From: Candidatus Parcubacteria bacterium
GTDB lineage: Bacteria; Patescibacteriota; Patescibacteriia; CAIXNZ01
Assembly (NCBI GenBank): GCA_026395755.1
Contig: JAPLYC010000095.1
Location: 1-12,208, forward strand
Direction: 5' to 3'
Length of the DNA: 12,208 bases
Shown in pieces: positions 6,401-12,208 of this stretch (position 1 is its first letter; each line of letters opens with the position of its first letter). The notes beneath the pieces were generated by a model that worked only from the letters and a program-made list of their open reading frames with translations, searched no databases and was not told the DNA's origin. The position numbers and the translations under genes were made by a program.

Positions 6401-6757
6401 GCGCTCAAGGCAGAAGACGATGCCAAACTCGTGGAGTTCAGTAAGGCTTTGGCCGACATTCAGGCCGCGCTTTACACTTCTGAGGCTGAGGCTGATGCCA
6501 AGCGCATCGCAGCTCTCCAGGAAAAACTGGTGGAAGCGATCGAAGGACTGGGCAATAAGCAGGTTCTGGCTGAACTGGCTCAGCACCTGCCCGGAGCCAC
6601 TGGCACTCTCGGATTACTTCTGGGCAAAGGCGGCTTAGACGCCATCGAAGGAATGTGTGGGGGCACGAAGCTTATCGATGCCATTCACAATTTAACCGGC
6701 AGGATTCAGCAACACAAAGAGGAATCTGCAAAAGTCGGTGAGGAGTTGAAGTCCTGA
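3497..6757 (+). CDS. Major Vault Protein (MVP) homolog, full-length architecture (N-terminal vault repeat domains, SPFH/band-7-like shoulder, long cap-helix coiled coil, cap-ring), 1086 aa with a disordered insert
   Basis: Shine-Dalgarno site AAAGGAGAA 8 nt upstream of the ATG. Several segments resemble metazoan MVP as recalled from memory (no alignment could be run): N-terminal ...LKPHQYAVIHNPV... (cf. VPPRHYCTVANPV); ...TYIPPTGIEV... (cf. GTYIPRKEVEV); ...GIYVMKVETGEVELVKG... (cf. GIYVQDVKTGKVRAVIG); ...RVVLGPQTTLLEFDE...FLWVTGNRPTD...ITADKAVIKVDVQYEVEF (cf. RVVFGPELVSLGPEE...LLLGPDFFTD...[21 protein letters not shown]); shoulder ...AAEQVSFAVLKDSISEFVRNVILG (cf. [27 protein letters not shown]). 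A 180-aa A/E/K/Q-rich heptad-like coiled coil follows (residues about 780-960), then a G-rich C-terminal cap-ring-like tail. Confidence 0.9.
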   Translation: MVAEVRKSPLLLGQFVWVASKKDGTIKLIIGPDPLEVTEDDIPMMPNAQNPWEFGPVEITQAVQRFVTLKPHQYAVIHNPVDSDTDTDYPNGKYNKGKNEMKPLKYGTKRVVIAGHFPVWPGQWVEVREIHRLDSKQYITVVVEKVPVDVKAPYYELTVACADIKKAVVDENTVSKEPAKEVVNESGNDPAKGTESAQNQNSSQPAATSEKPQATVQPAATSEKPQAKVPEKPQVSPLEKGVSGKDPDAPVFKVGQRIIIPGSKTETYIPPTGIEVDRNKAVKQPESTRHLDPKEELQDKITSGQIKIETMEQLIKRVGLEDDLFEAVRDRYTSLREAGKNRNALYEAITSIFDRSHLMKLLSIFMENTAVNQQATRDSDEAVCEAVVLGPTEFCVVVDENGMPNSHKGPGRVFPGPNDTFRTQGSRNRVYDAYHLREDRGLLLRVVADQITKKDLLEKLPEAVANQLNKEKYTKGDEIFISGFDAYLVPYYSVFEVIDPETRNPHIGNSHGGVYVQAIGIDQKSGIYVMKVETGEVELVKGKAKLLLDPRKQKHMKRRVPGKIWNLLIGYGEPHKAVSPDSVVESPWALSVQVPNNMAMLLTSRTGRRVVLGPQTTLLEFDESPEILHISVNRPKTEKDTKQTVFLWVTGNRPTDQVELITADKAVIKVDVQYEVEFSASDPKEQEKWFLYKNYVWMLASNARSRLRNAAEQVSFAVLKDSISEFVRNVILGKKPEGVAHRPGLPFETCNLRVTEVEVLDWVVDDPEIAKALATANKAAVNREIQVGEEKSALEAEQAKDQIAVEKAALVLRQTKRSAETELGKRRIVDESEKSALQISQEREARMAEAELTKSRLVEQTAAVKDEINIEAAKRTAAAQLEQSQIIDQKAAKELELKKAAALRDAAAKEEINKQEQALKKLVVELQQEIELIRLANCSVLSLKQQELDIKMSDVNRELHEKDTRSQMALKAEDDAKLVEFSKALADIQAALYTSEAEADAKRIAALQEKLVEAIEGLGNKQVLAELAQHLPGATGTLGLLLGKGGLDAIEGMCGGTKLIDAIHNLTGRIQQHKEESAKVGEELKS
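4106..4183 (+). repeat. perfect-core tandem repeat 2 x 39 bp inside the MVP gene, encoding QPAATSEKPQATV / QPAATSEKPQAKV within a P/Q/A/S/T/E/K-rich linker
   Basis: cagccggcagctacttcggaaaaaccacaggcca occurs at 4106-4139 and again at 4145-4178 (34/34 identical); unit length 39 nt, in frame. It lies within a ~75-aa low-complexity insert (residues about 175-250) that interrupts the vault-repeat region. Confidence 0.9.
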
Positions 6758-6798
6758 CAGTAGAACCCAAGCTGTCAACTTCATAATTATTAACAATA

Positions 6799-6835
6799 AG
6801 CCCCATTCCGCATTGCGGGGTGGGGCTTTTTCTTA
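6799..6835 (+). terminator. rho-independent terminator downstream of the MVP gene
   Basis: AGCCCCA...TGGGGCT 7-bp GC-rich stem around a loop containing a nested CCGC-ATT-GCGG hairpin, immediately followed by TTTTTCTT (6827-6834). It lies 42 nt after the stop codon. Confidence 0.7.
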
Positions 6836-6846
6836 TCCGTCATAAT

Positions 6847-6875
6847 TTGACCAAAAAATAGGGGGGTGATATAAT
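6847..6875 (+). promoter_or_regulatory. near-consensus sigma70-type promoter: -35 TTGACC (6847-6852), 17-nt spacer, extended -10 TGaTATAAT (6867-6875)
   Basis: The -10 hexamer TATAAT is perfect and has a TG at -15/-14. The -35 matches 5/6. It sits 33 nt upstream of the ArsR-family gene start. Confidence 0.65.
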
Positions 6876-6893
6876 TTAGACAGTTATCTAAAT
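6874..6893 (+). promoter_or_regulatory. operator-like perfect inverted repeat ATTTAGA-cagtta-TCTAAAT overlapping the -10/+1 region
   Basis: Perfect 7-bp arms with a 6-bp spacer, positioned at the transcription start of the ArsR/SdpR-like repressor gene. This is the typical geometry of autoregulatory ArsR-family operators. Confidence 0.45.
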
Positions 6894-6908
6894 ATCTAAT
6901 GTTTTTTT

Positions 6909-7169
6909 ATGAATTTGCATAATACAATTTCGGCTATGGCCGATCCTACCCGTCGTAAGATCCTGGAGCTTTTGAAAAGGGAAGATATGGCTGCTGGCCA
7001 GATTAATAAGCATTTCCAGATCACGGCGCCGTCTTTGACTCACCATTTGAATATTTTGCGCCAGGCTGATTTGGTAACCAGCCAGAGACAGGGGCAGGAA
7101 ATTATTTATTCCCTGAATTTAAGCGTGTTTGAAGAAGTGGCTCAGGCGCTTATTAAATTTTTCAAATAA
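6909..7169 (+). CDS. ArsR/SmtB-family winged-helix transcriptional repressor (SdpR-like), 86 aa
   Basis: ...DPTRRKILELL...MAAGQINKHFQITAPSLTHHLNILRQADLVTSQRQGQEIIYSL... is the canonical ArsR helix-turn-helix plus wing. No metal-binding Cys motif is present. It is followed 33 nt later by an SdpI-family gene. Confidence 0.85.
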   Translation: MNLHNTISAMADPTRRKILELLKREDMAAGQINKHFQITAPSLTHHLNILRQADLVTSQRQGQEIIYSLNLSVFEEVAQALIKFFK

Positions 7170-7202
7170 AAATTAATAATTAGTAATTAAAAATTTGTCT
7201 AT

Positions 7203-7874
7203 ATGTCTAATCCAATTAAACCAACGATAAAAACTGAAATCATTCCGCTTCTTTTAATTATTATTTCTGTTGTGGCTTCCTTTTATTTTTATGCCAATTT
7301 TCCCGAACAGGTTCCCATGCATTGGAATATAGCCGGCCAGGTGGACGGCTGGGGCAGCAAGACCACCGGAGCCATTATTTTGCCGTTGGTAATCATTGCT
7401 ATGTATGTGATGTTTTTATTGATCCCATATCTTGATCCGAAAAAAGATCGCTATGAACAATTTGTCAAAGTCTATCATATCTTTAAAAACTATCTTATCG
7501 GTTTCATGGTTTTGGTTTATTTAGTCACGGGTCTGGCCGGGCTTGGTTATGATGTGCCTGTTGGCCTGATTATTCCTATTGGCGTAGGCATTTTATTTAT
7601 TTTGATTGGCAATTACATGGCCAAGATAAAAATGAATTGGTTTATGGGTATCAGAACACCCTGGACTTTGTCATCGGAAGAAGTTTGGAATAAGACCCAT
7701 CGCATGGGCGGTAAGATTTTTATGCTGGGCGGATTTTTGATAATTTTGACCGGTATAGCACCCCTTAGTTGGCGTTTACCCATCTTTATTCTGACCATGG
7801 TTTTGTTGATATTTGGTACGATAGGGTATTCATATTGGGTTTATCGAATTGAGAAAAATAAAAAAGTTGGTTGA
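7203..7874 (+). CDS. SdpI/YhfL-family integral membrane immunity/signal-transduction protein with N-terminal DUF1648, 223 aa
   Basis: Four or more hydrophobic transmembrane segments. DUF1648-like motif PMHWNIAGQVDGWGSK. The SdpI-family signature region, quoted from recalled family consensus (the B. subtilis SdpI sequence itself was not reliably recalled), is ...NWFMGIRTPWTLSSEEVWNKTHRMGGKIFMLGG. Confidence 0.8.
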   Translation: MSNPIKPTIKTEIIPLLLIIISVVASFYFYANFPEQVPMHWNIAGQVDGWGSKTTGAIILPLVIIAMYVMFLLIPYLDPKKDRYEQFVKVYHIFKNYLIGFMVLVYLVTGLAGLGYDVPVGLIIPIGVGILFILIGNYMAKIKMNWFMGIRTPWTLSSEEVWNKTHRMGGKIFMLGGFLIILTGIAPLSWRLPIFILTMVLLIFGTIGYSYWVYRIEKNKKVG

Positions 7875-7906
7875 TGCGAATATCAGCTTTATTAAACCGG
7901 TAATAT

Positions 7907-7934
7907 TTGATATAATTATTGAAATACATATAAT
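7907..7934 (+). promoter_or_regulatory. candidate sigma70 promoter for the efflux operon: -35 TTGATA (7907-7912), 16-nt spacer, -10 TATAAT (7929-7934)
   Basis: Perfect -10 box and a 5/6 -35 box, 33 nt upstream of the ATG at 7968. The AT-rich context raises the chance of a chance match. Confidence 0.4.
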
Positions 7935-7967
7935 TCATTTAAAACGATTAAAAAATAAATAAAAACT

Positions 7968-9791
7968 ATGTCCTGGATTTTCAATACACTCAAAAGATTA
8001 GCCAAAAAGAAAAGCTTTTGGATTGTTTTAATTATTGTGGTAATTATCGTGATAGTTATTTTAAATATGATCAAAGGCAAAAAAACAGTCTATACCATGG
8101 AAAAGGTTAAGCTGGGCAATTTAGTTCAGACAGTTTCGGAAACCGGAACCGTGGAATCAGCTTCGGCCATTGACCTGAATTTCAAAGGCAGCGGGAAATT
8201 GGCTGAATTGAAAGTTAAAGAAGGCGACAAGGTCAAGTCAGGACAATTGCTGTCTCGTTTGGATGCCGGTTCTTTGGAAATTGCAGTGCGTCAGGCACAG
8301 GCCAATGTTGATATTGCTCAGGCTAATTTAAACAAATTGTTAGCCGGTGCCAGCGCCGAGGATCTTAAAGTCACGGAAGAGACGGTTAATAATGCCAGAA
8401 TTGCTTTTGAAAATGCCAAAAATAATTATGACAATTCTTTACTGAAAATTGACGCTGATACCACGACTTATGAGCAGGCAGTTACGGCAGCGCAAACAAG
8501 CTTGGATAATACTAAAAATACTTATACCAAAAGTGTGTCTGATGCCCGACAGAATTTATTAACCACCTTGCGCAATAAAGCCAATGTGGCTAATACCAGT
8601 TTGGATTTCATCAATTACCAGTATAATAATTTAAACAATGTCAGCGATCAGCAGGCCAAGTCCAATACCATGTGGTCATATAATTTAGCCATGGATAATA
8701 AAACTAAATTGGTTAATTTTTTAAACAAATCAGATCAGTCCATGAGCGAGGATGAAATTACCCAGGCAGGTGCGACTGCAATTACTCTTTTTGAGCAAAT
8801 AAATGACAGTTTGAATAATTTATTTAATTGCATTAGCTCAACCGTGATTGATGCCCGTTTTTCTCAGCTTTTGGTAGATAATGCCAAAGCCTTAGTTAAA
8901 GCCGAGCAGACAGCGGATAGCGCAAATTTATCAGCCTTGCAGGCTGCTGACCAGACTTACAAGACAGCAAAATTAAGTTATACCAGCGTGGTTGATACTG
9001 CTACTTCAAATCTGACTACTGCTCAAAATAATCTGAATTCTGTCTTGGCTAATAAGGATGTTTCCACGGTTACAGCTAAAGCGGCTTTAGATTCAGCCCA
9101 AGGGGCATATAATCTGGCCAAAGCGCAGTTTGAACTGAAAAAGGCCAAGCCGCGTCTCGTTGATATTGGATATTATCAGGCTCAGGTCAACCAGGCCGCA
9201 GCCGCCCGAGATTTAGCCCTGAATAATTTAAATGATTATATTATTTTTGCGCCGACAGACGGCGTAGTGACTTTTGTTAATTATAAATTAGGCGAACAGA
9301 TCGGTGTGGCTAGCACTAAATCTGCAATTTCCATGCTGGGTACGGGTGATTTTCAGATTAAAGTTGACGTTCCGGAATCAGATATCATTAAAATTAAAGT
9401 CGGCGATCCGGTGAAAATTACTTTGGATGCCTATGGCAGCGCGGATGTTTTTGAAGGCAAAATAGTCTCCATTAATATTGCCGAGACTGTGATCCAAGAT
9501 GTGGTTTATTATAAAGTTACCGCGCAAATAGATCCCACTGACAAAGAAATTAAATCAGGCATGACAGCCAATGTTGATATTATTACGGCTACAGCGGAAA
9601 ATGTCTTATCTCTTTCCGGTCGGGCAATTAAACAGGATGAAACCGGTAAAAAATATGTGGAGATTTTAAAATTCGGCAATAATGTTGAAAAAGTTATGAT
9701 TGAAACAGGAATCAAGGCTGATACCGGAACAGAAATTAAAAGTGGTTTGCAGGAAGGCCAGGAAGTCATAATTTCAAAAACTCAAAAATAA
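7968..9791 (+). CDS. HlyD/MacA/YknX-type periplasmic adaptor (membrane fusion protein) with N-terminal transmembrane anchor and an unusually long N/Q/T/A-rich alpha-helical hairpin, 607 aa
   Basis: N-terminal transmembrane segment FWIVLIIVVIIVIVIL. The biotinyl/lipoyl-like half-motifs (...LAELKVKEGDKVKSGQLLSRLD... and ...FAPTDGVVTFVNYKLGEQI...) flank about 300 aa of heptad-like low-complexity helix. The C-terminus has beta-barrel/MPD-like segments. It is followed at 4-nt spacing by the ABC ATPase. Confidence 0.85.
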   Translation: MSWIFNTLKRLAKKKSFWIVLIIVVIIVIVILNMIKGKKTVYTMEKVKLGNLVQTVSETGTVESASAIDLNFKGSGKLAELKVKEGDKVKSGQLLSRLDAGSLEIAVRQAQANVDIAQANLNKLLAGASAEDLKVTEETVNNARIAFENAKNNYDNSLLKIDADTTTYEQAVTAAQTSLDNTKNTYTKSVSDARQNLLTTLRNKANVANTSLDFINYQYNNLNNVSDQQAKSNTMWSYNLAMDNKTKLVNFLNKSDQSMSEDEITQAGATAITLFEQINDSLNNLFNCISSTVIDARFSQLLVDNAKALVKAEQTADSANLSALQAADQTYKTAKLSYTSVVDTATSNLTTAQNNLNSVLANKDVSTVTAKAALDSAQGAYNLAKAQFELKKAKPRLVDIGYYQAQVNQAAAARDLALNNLNDYIIFAPTDGVVTFVNYKLGEQIGVASTKSAISMLGTGDFQIKVDVPESDIIKIKVGDPVKITLDAYGSADVFEGKIVSINIAETVIQDVVYYKVTAQIDPTDKEIKSGMTANVDIITATAENVLSLSGRAIKQDETGKKYVEILKFGNNVEKVMIETGIKADTGTEIKSGLQEGQEVIISKTQK

Positions 9792-9795
9792 GGTT

Positions 9796-10521
9796 ATGAC
9801 AAAAAATTTACTAATTAAATTGGAAAAGATTGAAAAGGATTATACCAATGAAGAGGTGGTCACCCGAGTTTTAAAGGGTGTAAATCTGGAAATTGCCCAG
9901 GGGGAATTTGTGGCTGTGATGGGTCCGTCCGGCTCCGGCAAGTCAACCCTGATGCATATTCTGGGTTTTTTGGATAAACCTACGGCGGGTAGGTATCTGT
10001 TCAAGGGTAAAGATGTCAGTAATCTGGCGGATGATGAATTGGCTGAAATCAGGAATGAAGAAGTAGGCTTTATTTTTCAGGCATTTAATCTGCTGCAGAG
10101 AACCAGCGTTTATGATAATGTGAAATTGCCTTTGACCTACAGTAGTAAAAAATTTGATAAAAACAAGGTGACTAGCGCGATCAAGTCTGTCGGCTTGTAT
10201 CATCGTCTGAATAATTTATCCAATCAGCTTTCCGGCGGTGAAAAACAGAGGGTGGCGATTGCGCGTGCCTTGGTCAATGACCCGTCAATTATTTTTGCTG
10301 ACGAGCCGACCGGTAATTTGGACTCCAAATCAGGCAAACAGATTATGGAAATATTGCAGGATTTAAATGAGGACGGTAAAACGATTATTTTGGTTACTCA
10401 TGAAAAATATACGGCTGAACATGCCCGCAGGATTATAAAAATCGTGGACGGAGAAATCGTTGATGATTATCAGGTTAAAGAACGTCTGATTGCCAAATTC
10501 GAAAAAGATTTAACCAAATAA
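9796..10521 (+). CDS. ABC transporter ATP-binding protein, MacB/YknY/LolD/FtsE-type, 241 aa
   Basis: Walker [11 protein letters not shown]-loop, ABC signature [15 protein letters not shown], Walker [13 protein letters not shown] and H-loop VTHE are all present. Confidence 0.95.
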
Positions 10522-10525
10522 TAAT

Positions 10526-11767
10526 ATGGAATTGACTTCTACTTTAAGACTTGCCTTTAGTGGTTTGAAGTCAAAAAAGACCCGAACATTTTTAACAATG
10601 CTCGGGATTATTATTGGCATTTCCTCAGTTATCATTATTATTTCCGTCGGTGCCGGCGCTCAAAGTCTGATTTTAAATCAGATCAAGGCTTTGGGTTCCA
10701 ACCAGATTTCCATTTTTCCCGGGGCTTCGGAAGAATCAGGCCCGCCACCGAGTGTTTTTGGCTCAGCCAATACCAGTCTGAAAATTGAGGATCTGGACGC
10801 TCTTAATAATAAACAAAATGTGCCGCACGTAGTAGCTATTACTTATTATGTCAGGGGGACAGCGACAATGAAATGGCAGGATAGTGAATTTAACGGCACC
10901 TTTGTGGCTACGACAGCGAGTTACCCCGAAGTTCATGATATTGCGGTGGCTCAAGGCAGATTCTTGGATCAGGACGAGGAAAAAAATCTGGCCAAAGTTG
11001 TGGTCTTGGGCGCCAATGTCAAAGATGAACTGTTTGGAGATGAAGAAGCTATCGGTCAGCTGATTAAAATAAAAAAACACGAGTTCCGGGTCATCGGCGT
11101 GATGGCCAAAAAGGGAACCACGGGTTTTGAAAATCAGGATAATTATGTTTTTATCCCGGTTTCTACCGGACAAAAGATAATGTTGGGAATTGATTATATT
11201 TCTTTGGCCAGGGTGAAAATTGATTCTCAGGAAAATGTTAATCAGGCAGTTGCAGACATTAAGGCTGTTTTGCGTGACCGCCATAATCTGGATAGTAAGG
11301 AACTGGATGATTTCACGGTACGCGCCCAGGCGCAGGCCATTGAGATTTTTTCTTCTATTACCAATTCTTTGACTTATTTTTTGGCAGCAATTGCCGCGAT
11401 CTCACTTTTGGTCGGAGGTATCGGCATCATGAATATTATGTTAATAGCGGTAACGGAAAGAACCAGGGAGATCGGTCTGCGCAAGGCTTTGGGCGCCAAA
11501 AGAAAAAATATTTTAAGCCAATTTTTAATTGAGTCAATAGCCGTTACTTTACTCGGCGGAATTATAGGCATAATTTTTGGTATTGTAATATCATTATTGG
11601 TGGCCTTTATTGCCAGATATCTTGGCTATAACTGGGATTTCGTAATTTCCATTTCCGCGGTATTTTTATCATGTACAATCTCAATTATGGTTGGTTTGTT
11701 TTTCGGACTTTACCCGGCTTTCAAGGCTTCGGAATTAAATCCGATTGAGGCCCTTCAGTACGAATAA
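10526..11767 (+). CDS. ABC transporter permease, MacB/FtsX family (N-terminal transmembrane helix, large extracytoplasmic MacB-PCD-like domain, C-terminal FtsX 3-transmembrane bundle), 413 aa
   Basis: The N-terminus has a TM helix LTMLGIIIGISSVIIIISVGAGAQ; a ~230-aa extracytoplasmic domain follows, then FtsX-like helices ...LLVGGIGIMNIMLIAVTERTREIGLRKALGA.... Spacing is 4 nt from the ATPase gene. Confidence 0.9.
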   Translation: MELTSTLRLAFSGLKSKKTRTFLTMLGIIIGISSVIIIISVGAGAQSLILNQIKALGSNQISIFPGASEESGPPPSVFGSANTSLKIEDLDALNNKQNVPHVVAITYYVRGTATMKWQDSEFNGTFVATTASYPEVHDIAVAQGRFLDQDEEKNLAKVVVLGANVKDELFGDEEAIGQLIKIKKHEFRVIGVMAKKGTTGFENQDNYVFIPVSTGQKIMLGIDYISLARVKIDSQENVNQAVADIKAVLRDRHNLDSKELDDFTVRAQAQAIEIFSSITNSLTYFLAAIAAISLLVGGIGIMNIMLIAVTERTREIGLRKALGAKRKNILSQFLIESIAVTLLGGIIGIIFGIVISLLVAFIARYLGYNWDFVISISAVFLSCTISIMVGLFFGLYPAFKASELNPIEALQYE

Positions 11768-11770
11768 TGC

Positions 11771-11899
11771 TACAAATATACAAATATTGTAACAAATGAT
11801 TACAAATAAGGTTTTATGAAGTTATAAGAGGTTATATTATGTTGTAAAAGGTTGCTGGAAAAAATTTGTAGTAATTTGTATTTGATTTGTATATTTGTA
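11771..11899. repeat. AT-rich intergenic element bounded by a 15-bp inverted repeat (TACAAATATACAAAT ... ATTTGTATATTTGTA) and studded with TACAAAT/ATTTGTA heptamers
   Basis: 11771-11785 tacaaatatacaaat and 11885-11899 atttgtatatttgta are exact reverse complements. Additional ttacaaata / tttgtagtaatttgtatttgatttgta iterations lie inside both arms. The element occupies the whole 141-nt gap between the two permease genes. Confidence 0.5.
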
Positions 11900-11908
11900 A
11901 CCTAATTT

Positions 11909-12208
11909 ATGTTTACACAGATAAAAAAATCAATTGACATTGCCAAGTCAGCGCTGGTACGCCATAAATTGCGTGCTGTTTTGACGATCCTGGGTATAAC
12001 TGTCGGTATTACGGCGGTGATTGTGGTTTTATCCGCAGGTAAAGCGATTGAACTTTTTATTACCAGTCAGGTAACTCAATTTGGCACTGACTGGATTCAG
12101 GTGGAAGTCAAAGTGCCGGCTACTTCTCATACTTCAGTTGAAAATGCCGGCGGTCAGGCTCAGGGAATTACGATTACCACCATGAAAGAAAAAGATGCCG
12201 TGGAAATT
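11909..12208 (+). CDS. second MacB/FtsX-family ABC permease, N-terminal 100 aa (3'-truncated by window edge)
   Basis: MFTQIKKSIDIAKSALVRHKLRAVLTILGITVGITAVIVVLSAGKAIELFITSQVTQFG... has the same N-terminal transmembrane helix and extracytoplasmic domain onset as the upstream permease. The frame stays open to the window end. Confidence 0.8.
   Translation, partial: MFTQIKKSIDIAKSALVRHKLRAVLTILGITVGITAVIVVLSAGKAIELFITSQVTQFGTDWIQVEVKVPATSHTSVENAGGQAQGITITTMKEKDAVEI

Follow-up and report, generated by a model that had tools for sequence, protein, structure and literature searches.

Does a gene pair resembling the sdpR-sdpI immunity operon of Bacillus subtilis, followed on the same strand by the genes of a MacAB-type efflux pump, make up one defense system, or do two separate transcription units happen to lie side by side? 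The question is raised by a 12,208-nucleotide (nt) stretch of a metagenome-assembled genome of Candidatus Parcubacteria (Patescibacteria); this whole stretch is the window referred to below. An earlier note on this DNA had described a regulator gene, an SdpI-type gene, and genes for an adaptor, an ATPase, and permeases in a row on the forward strand, and each of them is indeed present where it had been reported (Table 1). The note had also read them as a unified system for sensing and exporting peptide toxins. We conclude instead that sdpR-sdpI (sdpRI) and the pump are probably two independent transcription units, and that their juxtaposition is a deletion scar.

Open reading frames (ORFs) in the window were called in six frames and scanned with Pfam and NCBIfam profiles. 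To compare relatives, one genome per species was scanned, which gave 573 confirmed loci, and the best 80 (L002 to L081) were kept. A metagenome scan with the adaptor protein returned two further loci, L084 among them. In total, including L082 and L084, about 85 related genome pieces were compared, and a weight-matrix scan for the SdpR operator covered 1.24 Mb of these loci on both strands. Counts of downstream neighbors refer to the 68 informative loci, which are those with at least 1.5 kb downstream of sdpI. An exact-protein look-up of the window SdpI returned one 4.1-kb contig, which added nothing on the neighborhood.

Two probable units and the gap between them

The two modules are rarely adjacent. 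Only 1 of the 68 informative loci has the adaptor gene as the first large ORF past sdpI, namely the sister contig L002, whose SdpI is 89% identical to that of the window; the SdpI of L082 is 87% identical. Of the 80 sdpI loci, 5 contain a MacAB-like adaptor gene in the examined surroundings of sdpI. The other four operons lie 2.9 to 7 kb from sdpI and on either side of it, so there is no clustering next to sdpI; their adaptors are only 25 to 31% identical where aligned, which puts these operons at the level of paralogues. The pump also exists without sdpRI: in L084, a metagenomic orthologue with a 65% identical adaptor, a MurF fragment and an AbrB/MazE-like gene lie upstream. Based on tblastn with the window proteins, sdpR lies directly 5′ of sdpI in 57 of the 80 loci, but the pump does not share in this conservation.

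The undisturbed layout of the pump is seen in L082 and L084, where its native control region (L082 positions 1180 to 1251 and L084 positions 765 to 843) combines a TG-extended consensus promoter, a perfect palindrome, and an AbrB/MazE-like gene. The palindrome, AGTATGATAAATCATACT, is composed of AGTATGAT-AA-ATCATACT, was found in only these 2 of the 85 loci, and is unrelated to the SdpR operator. The AbrB/MazE-like gene is intact in both, stands first in the pump operon, encodes 76 to 78 amino acids (aa), matches PF04014 at 40 and 38 bits, and has its stop codon 5 nt (L082) or 11 nt (L084) ahead of the adaptor start codon. It is probably an autoregulated repressor of the MacAB-type pump. Both L002 (10728 to 10967, minus strand) and L082 (813 to 1100, minus strand) carry a convergent gene for a membrane protein of 79 and 95 aa, respectively, between sdpI and the pump. 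This conserved, small hydrophobic product ends in GIGAGWPGHYDDW and has no Pfam match, and the gene has been lost from the window. In L002, a terminator hairpin lies between sdpI and the pump as well.

In the window, the 93 bp that separate sdpI from the adaptor gene (7875 to 7967) are the 3′ remnant of a deleted AbrB/MazE-like gene, a point that the earlier note had missed. The translation of this stretch in one frame, ISFIKPVIFDIIIEIHIIHLKRLKNK followed by a stop codon, aligns to the C terminus of the intact AbrB/MazE-like proteins of L082 and L084. In a three-way alignment against L082, L002 is short by 238 bp, corresponding to the promoter, the palindrome, and the first ∼46 codons of the gene, and the window is short by ∼640 bp, from the last sdpI codons to a right-hand boundary identical with that of L002. 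The last codons of the window sdpI lie at this junction, and its stop codon was created there. In the simplest history, a deletion common to the window and L002 would have removed the regulator of the pump together with its promoter and palindrome, and a further deletion in the window lineage would then have removed the convergent gene, placing the pump 93 bp behind sdpI. The juxtaposition is thus the scar of a recent deletion and not an evolved joint system.

In the proposal of one defense system, SdpI would sense a membrane-active peptide toxin, derepression of SdpR would drive one long transcript, and the pump would export that toxin. The proposal gains from the shared strand, the short gap without a predicted terminator, and the fact that the modules adjoin in three close relatives; in addition, SdpI and YknWXYZ both protect B. 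subtilis from SDP (PMC2910880, PMC4887032). However, adjacency is limited to one shallow clade with SdpI identities of 87% or more and is absent from 67 of the 68 loci and from L084, the more distant pump orthologue. In both sister contigs the modules are separated by a convergent gene, to which L002 adds its terminator hairpin, and the weight-matrix scan never placed an SdpR operator at a pump operon. The pump also has a native promoter, palindrome, and AbrB/MazE-like gene of its own, and neither a YknW-like gene nor a toxin precursor was found in the window or L002. A unified system therefore seems unlikely to us, the functional claim fails under the refuting condition that the note itself had named, and we found no paper linking sdpRI to such pumps in Patescibacteria. 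A composite peptide-toxin defense locus would have been a new system; on this evidence, the claim should not be carried forward.

The remnant contains a promoter-like site, TTGATA-16-TATAAT, which reads CTGATA-16-TATAAT in L002, has TATATC as its −10 element in L082, and lacks a −10 element in L084. The TATAAT element is thus found in both truncated genomes and not where the AbrB/MazE-like gene is intact. We considered whether this site could be the pump's own promoter, conserved in all relatives, and rejected the idea; in L082 and L084 the site is coding sequence of the intact gene. Because sdpI of L002 has a convergent gene and a terminator hairpin behind it, the pump there presumably must use a promoter in the remnant region, and we therefore infer the same promoter for the pump in the window. 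The window pump is probably expressed from the promoter-like site, which may have improved after the native promoter was lost.

The pump might instead have been rewired by accident in this genome only and be transcribed mainly by read-through from the SdpR-controlled promoter, as a new six-gene operon without a long history. The junction joins the sdpI stop directly to the remnant 93 bp before the adaptor gene, with no terminator between sdpI and the adaptor, and the native promoter and palindrome of L082 and L084 are absent from the window. Against this stands L002, which has the same truncation yet retains a convergent gene and a terminator after sdpI, so that its pump would need a promoter in the remnant region. 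Moreover, the window version of that site is nearer to consensus than the L002 version, and repression is expected to keep the strong sdpR promoter shut for most of the time. We regard transcription mainly by read-through as decidedly improbable.

Several observations weigh against our preferred reading of two independent units. The comparison drew on the 80 best tblastn matches, nearly all of them from Patescibacteria, so the sampling barely extends beyond this group. The modules are neighbors within ∼0.5 to 0.8 kb in three close relatives (the window, L002, and L082), and a weak, lineage-specific coupling of sdpRI to the pump is conceivable. The site at 7907 to 7934 is a mere consensus match in AT-rich DNA, where the scan gave 19 sites against 17 expected from shuffles. 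Finally, no terminator was predicted in the window gap between sdpI and the adaptor gene, and some read-through from the SdpR-controlled promoter into the pump is therefore possible in this genome only.

Both sdpRI and the pump are ordinary new members of known families. The locus is a clear case in which a deletion of modest size looks like an operon fusion, and it counsels caution when function is read from a single-genome neighborhood. Two by-products of the comparison are the reconstructed deletion that imitates such a fusion and a phylum-wide SdpR operator.

The sdpR-sdpI module and its putative operator

The pairing of the two genes is already known: sdpI homologues often follow sdpR-like regulators (PMC2910880). 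The count of 57 loci with sdpR rests on tblastn; greedy ORF picking sometimes took antisense shadows over sdpR. A protein search with the window SdpI returned more than 1,400 relatives, of which the best hundred-odd are 57 to 67% identical and come almost entirely from Patescibacteria metagenome-assembled genomes (MAGs). The next large ORF 3′ of sdpI encodes a SpoU-type RNA methyltransferase (PF00588) in 18 of the 68 informative loci; the remaining downstream ORFs are varied and mostly nonrecurring, and include FtsQ-like, TyrRS, MutM, and P-type ATPase genes. In 164 of 190 genome pairs, SdpI shows higher conservation than the housekeeping methyltransferase next to it, with median identities of 71% for SdpR, 57% for SdpI, and 51% for the methyltransferase. 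For an immunity gene engaged in an arms race against a variable toxin, a different pattern would be expected. We conclude that sdpR-sdpI is a self-contained, vertically inherited two-gene module that is strongly conserved across Patescibacteria.

The module carries a sharply defined control element. When the 110 nt 5′ of each sdpR start were aligned, the phylogenetic footprint consisted of a consensus promoter followed immediately by TTAGATAGTTGTCTAAATATCTAA, and the promoter arrangement TTGACA...TGnTATAAT recurs upstream of sdpR in most related loci. The window palindrome TTAGACAGTTATCTAA (6876 to 6891) is part of a 24-bp element at 6876 to 6899, for which the consensus among relatives is TTAGAyAGTTrTCTAAATATCTAA. 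Its architecture is a 7-2-7 inverted repeat (TTAGAyA-NN-TrTCTAA) plus a third half-site, TATCTAA. By a strict pattern, the element abuts the −10 box in 47 of the 57 sdpR-carrying loci, usually 27 to 38 nt 5′ of the start codon, and its conservation at sdpR is far above chance. Weight-matrix hits of at least 14 bits fell solely at sdpR-upstream positions in the 1.24 Mb scanned, with none upstream of other genes and none in loci without sdpR; the window has exactly one copy. The suggestion of a strong promoter with an operator palindrome is thus well founded, given 11 of 12 promoter matches and an element kept in most sdpR loci. The placement of the putative operator at its own promoter implies that sdpRI would be autorepressed. 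A terminator behind the preceding gene (6798 to 6828) marks the 5′ boundary of the unit, and an Rfam scan of the locus found a tRNA alone, with no riboswitch or leader RNA.

In six relatives (L020, L012, L064, L021, L014, and L023), short-period repeats are inserted past the operator and ahead of the sdpR start codon.

The regulator belongs to the SdpR subfamily. It scores 115.4 bits against the NCBIfam autorepressor SdpR family model NF033789 (cut-off, 100) and 51 bits against the ArsR domain HTH_5, and it falls far under the cut-offs of CmtR, BigR, and other specific metal-sensor models in the NCBIfam scan. The main competing identification is an ordinary metal- or metalloid-sensing ArsR/SmtB repressor, with the membrane protein as a metal-related transporter or sensor. 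The generic ArsR/SmtB model NF033788 does match, at 80.5 bits, and a P-type ATPase recurs near sdpI (cluster c26, with 6 members, including L033, L072, and L074). The generic score is nevertheless below that of the SdpR-specific model. In an alignment of 57 SdpR sequences (56 homologues and the window protein), no Cys is conserved at window-aligned positions, the His/Asp/Glu ligand set of the last helix is absent, and the only conserved His residues, His45 and His46, both lie in the recognition helix; an ArsR/SmtB-type metal site is therefore absent. The partner protein, moreover, carries both SdpI-family motifs. We rejected a metal-sensing regulator on the SdpR-model score and the missing ligand residues, and consider the metal-related reading of the pair extremely improbable; the original assignment to the SdpR type and not to the metal sensors holds.

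The membrane protein likewise fits the families suggested for it. The profile search that had been called for placed it far over the cut-offs of both SdpI (PF13630, 77.1 bits against 28.2, residues 141 to 210) and DUF1648 (PF07853, 65.5 bits against 28.7). An AlphaFold2 model (predicted local distance difference test score [pLDDT], 86) has six long helices and a beta hairpin at residues 36 to 52 that corresponds to motif 1. The published motif 1 is matched by FPEQVPMHWNIAGQVDGWGSK (residues ∼30 to 58) between helices 1 and 2, and motif 2 by GNYMAKIKMNWFMGIRTPWTLSSEEVWNKTHRMGGK (residues ∼128 to 178) between helices 4 and 5. By the positive-inside rule, we infer an outward-facing motif 1 and a cytoplasmic motif 2, in line with the orientation suggested for the family. 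Domain scores, six-helix topology, and the positions of both motifs place the protein in the SdpI family at the sequence level. Among solved structures there was no SdpI match by sequence (the best, at an E value of 0.013, was an unrelated SLC34 segment), and a Foldseek search of the model against the PDB gave nothing at an E value of ≤0.001, so structure yields no functional lead for SdpI. The family is very large, and B. subtilis SdpI is its sole characterized member (PMC11995493).

By analogy with B. subtilis, the most likely mode of action of sdpRI is autorepression relieved when SdpI captures SdpR. SdpR would bind the 24-bp operator and block sdpRI transcription; an extracellular or membrane signal would be sensed by the external motif-1 hairpin of SdpI, whose cytoplasmic motif-2 loop would then keep SdpR at the membrane and so derepress the operon.

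The idea of a small secreted toxin precursor nearby found no support: no scanned window ORF matched a toxin- or bacteriocin-precursor family, no SdpC-like or toxin-precursor gene is evident in the window or in sister contig L002, and no conserved gene for a small secreted peptide lies near sdpRI in the 80 loci. As far as the present data go, the ligand of Patescibacteria SdpI apparently cannot be SdpC. A broader interpretation would make SdpR-SdpI an ancient, vertically inherited core sensor of envelope signals in Patescibacteria instead of a toxin-specific immunity pair. It would respond to a conserved ligand or membrane cue other than SdpC, possibly tied to a host-attached lifestyle, with the regulator-less MacAB pump perhaps under partial SdpR control in this one genome. 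The near-invariant operator and a motif-1 hairpin more conserved than the neighboring housekeeping genes argue for such a conserved ligand or cue, and we put the interpretation forward only tentatively. A superphylum-wide module with no SdpC gene in the loci examined and a sharply defined operator offers a testable handle on SdpI-family signals outside Bacillus.

Some lineages have other neighbors. In L016, L026, L031, and L056, sdpI is followed within 1 to 4 nt by a 152-aa ORF without a family match, and in the sdpR-less loci L026, L031, L065, and L070, a ∼530-aa multipass membrane protein without a family match is encoded 5′ of sdpI. These proteins (in L016, L026, L031, L056, L065, and L070, at ∼8000 to 11100) may be alternative SdpI partners; three of the loci are titled Buchananbacteria. 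Many binchicken third-party annotation (TPA) assemblies with a typical Patescibacteria locus (L007, L010, L013, and others) are titled "uncultured Gammaproteobacteria bacterium," apparently taxonomic mislabels.

Pump genes and the upstream part of the window

Table 1. Annotated features along the 12,208-nt window, in positional order
Feature	Positions	Strand	Basis or detail
GIY-YIG ORF	389-643	+	Pfam/NCBIfam scans
tRNA-Glu(CTC)	748-820	+	Rfam
Protein with phosphoenolpyruvate (PEP)-utilising mobile domain	811-1920	+	Pfam/NCBIfam scans
59-aa ORF	–	+	ORF call
Acidic 358-aa ORF	2365-3441	+	No family match
1086-aa protein with major-vault-protein shoulder domain	3497-6757	+	PF11978, 61 bits
Intrinsic terminator of vault-like gene	6798-6828	+	14-bp stem, 9 G-C pairs, T tail
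sdpRI promoter	6847-6875	+	TTGACC-17-TATAAT with TG extension (TGaTATAAT); 11/12 consensus matches
Putative SdpR operator TTAGACAGTTATCTAAATATCTAA	6876-6899	+	24 bp; starts directly 3′ of −10 box
sdpR, 86-aa minimal winged-helix ArsR-family repressor, SdpR subfamily	6909-7169	+	NF033789, HTH_5
sdpI, 223-aa membrane protein, DUF1648 and SdpI domains, six helices	7203-7874	+	Pfam
AbrB/MazE-like pseudogene remnant, last 26 codons and stop	7882-7962	+	Frame translation ISFIKPVIFDIIIEIHIIHLKRLKNK, then stop
Promoter-like site TTGATA-16-TATAAT inside remnant	7907-7934	+	11/12 matches
Membrane-fusion adaptor, MacA/YknX-like, 607 aa	7968-9791	+	TIGR01730, HlyD_3, HlyD_D23, Biotin_lipoyl_2
ABC ATPase, MacB/LolD/YknY type, separate polypeptide	9796-10521	+	ABC_tran, 117 bits
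Permease 1, MacB-type (FtsX family), extracytoplasmic MacB_PCD domain	10526-11767	+	PF12704, 156 bits; PF02687, 72 bits
AT-rich inverted-repeat spacer between permease genes	11771-11907	+	TACAAAT/ATTTGTA units
Permease 2, MacB-type, first 100 codons, cut by window end	11909-12208	+	PF12704, 30.1 bits (cut-off, 27)

Profile and structure matches agree with the description of the pump as equivalents of YknX, YknY, and YknZ plus a second permease. The adaptor scores 117 bits against the RND_mfp model TIGR01730 (cut-off, 94.9) and matches MacA structures at E values of about 1e-24 (5nik_D, 8e-24), over residues 40 to 127 and 396 to 604 only; its helical hairpin region has ∼260 extra residues relative to the solved MacA chains of 341 to 371 aa. 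The top NCBIfam match of the ATPase is the ATPase part of MacB (E value, 3e-72). Permease 1 matches MacB over its full length (5gko, E value of 1.5e-63) and also 5xu1_M, deposited as "ABC transporter permease" (E value, 2.8e-51). A permease with an N-terminal helix, a large extracytoplasmic MacB_PCD domain, and a C-terminal FtsX helix bundle, together with a cognate ATPase and a MacA-like adaptor, are the features of type VII MacB exporters, and all are present here. The part of permease 2 in the window matches L002 15019 to 15317 by blastn, where FtsX-like tblastn hits run on to ∼16276. By analogy, the two paralogous permeases suggest a LolCE-like heterodimer. Farther 3′ in L002, the pump is followed by two ORFs without a Pfam match and then by hrcA-grpE-dnaK.

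Between the permease genes, the 141-bp spacer forms a long AT-rich hairpin with inverted repeats of 23 nt and 16 nt (RNA fold of −29.7 kcal/mol; z = −1.7). The sister contig lacks this insertion: the blastn alignment to L002 skips 11769 to 11908, and the L002 spacer is 38 bp. These repeats and the inserts in the sdpR leaders may represent a class of small mobile or expandable repeats.

Upstream of the sdpRI unit, the region 827 to 6860 is not common to the window and L002. Its largest gene encodes the vault-like protein, which has weak Vault repeat hits in addition to PF11978 and a long coiled-coil tail; the gene has a GC content of ∼51%, compared with 35 to 40% in its flanks. About 90 homologues were found, mostly 37 to 51% identical and almost all from Patescibacteria MAGs, with one from a Nanoarchaeia MAG. 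Some are named "major vault protein" by the Joint Genome Institute (JGI), and we found no paper tying vault proteins to Patescibacteria. At the start of the window, short repeats (337 to 378, 686 to 731, and 748 to 827) flank the GIY-YIG ORF beside tRNA-Glu(CTC), and the same repeat matches L002 3099 to 3145, which suggests that a small GIY-YIG element was inserted near the tRNA gene. The listed start of the ORF at 811 to 1920 overlaps the tRNA, so its true start is probably later.

Comparison with known systems

The closest characterized relative of the regulatory module is the immunity and signaling operon sdpR-sdpI of B. subtilis (Ellermeier et al. 2006, as summarized in PMC2910880). The gene order is the same, with an ArsR-family, SdpR-type repressor followed by a six-helix SdpI-family protein; both family motifs are shared, in loops 1-2 and 4-5; and the operator, putative in the window, likewise lies at the operon's own promoter. 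Unlike in B. subtilis, no sdpABC/SdpC toxin genes are evident in the window or sister contig, and the Patescibacteria pair is vertically inherited in housekeeping neighborhoods, whereas its counterpart belongs to a cannibalism locus.

The pump invites comparison with YknWXYZ, the SDP-resistance exporter of Bacillus (PMC4887032). Both have an adaptor, an ABC ATPase encoded separately, and a MacB-type permease that carries an extracytoplasmic domain. Patescibacteria cells have no outer membrane, as in the Bacillus setting of YknWXYZ. Unlike that exporter, the pump has no YknW (Yip1-type) component in the stretch from 7968 to 12208, and the L002 ORFs past permease 2 have no Pfam match. It has two different permease genes instead of one, and its 607-aa adaptor has a hairpin region ∼260 residues longer than in solved MacA chains. 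Control also differs: YknWXYZ belongs to sigma-W, whereas in relatives of the window the pump is probably regulated by the AbrB/MazE-like gene with its own palindrome.

Among MacAB-type pumps, we compared MacAB of Escherichia coli, Acinetobacter, and Aggregatibacter and Spr0693-0695 of Streptococcus pneumoniae (PMC5768738). In contrast to these, the pump described here has a second, paralogous permease, and no TolC partner was identified for it. Permease 1 matches MacB over the full transmembrane and periplasmic part, and the adaptor matches the lipoyl, barrel, and membrane-proximal domains of MacA. As in the Gram-positive versions reported, its ATPase and permease are two distinct polypeptides.

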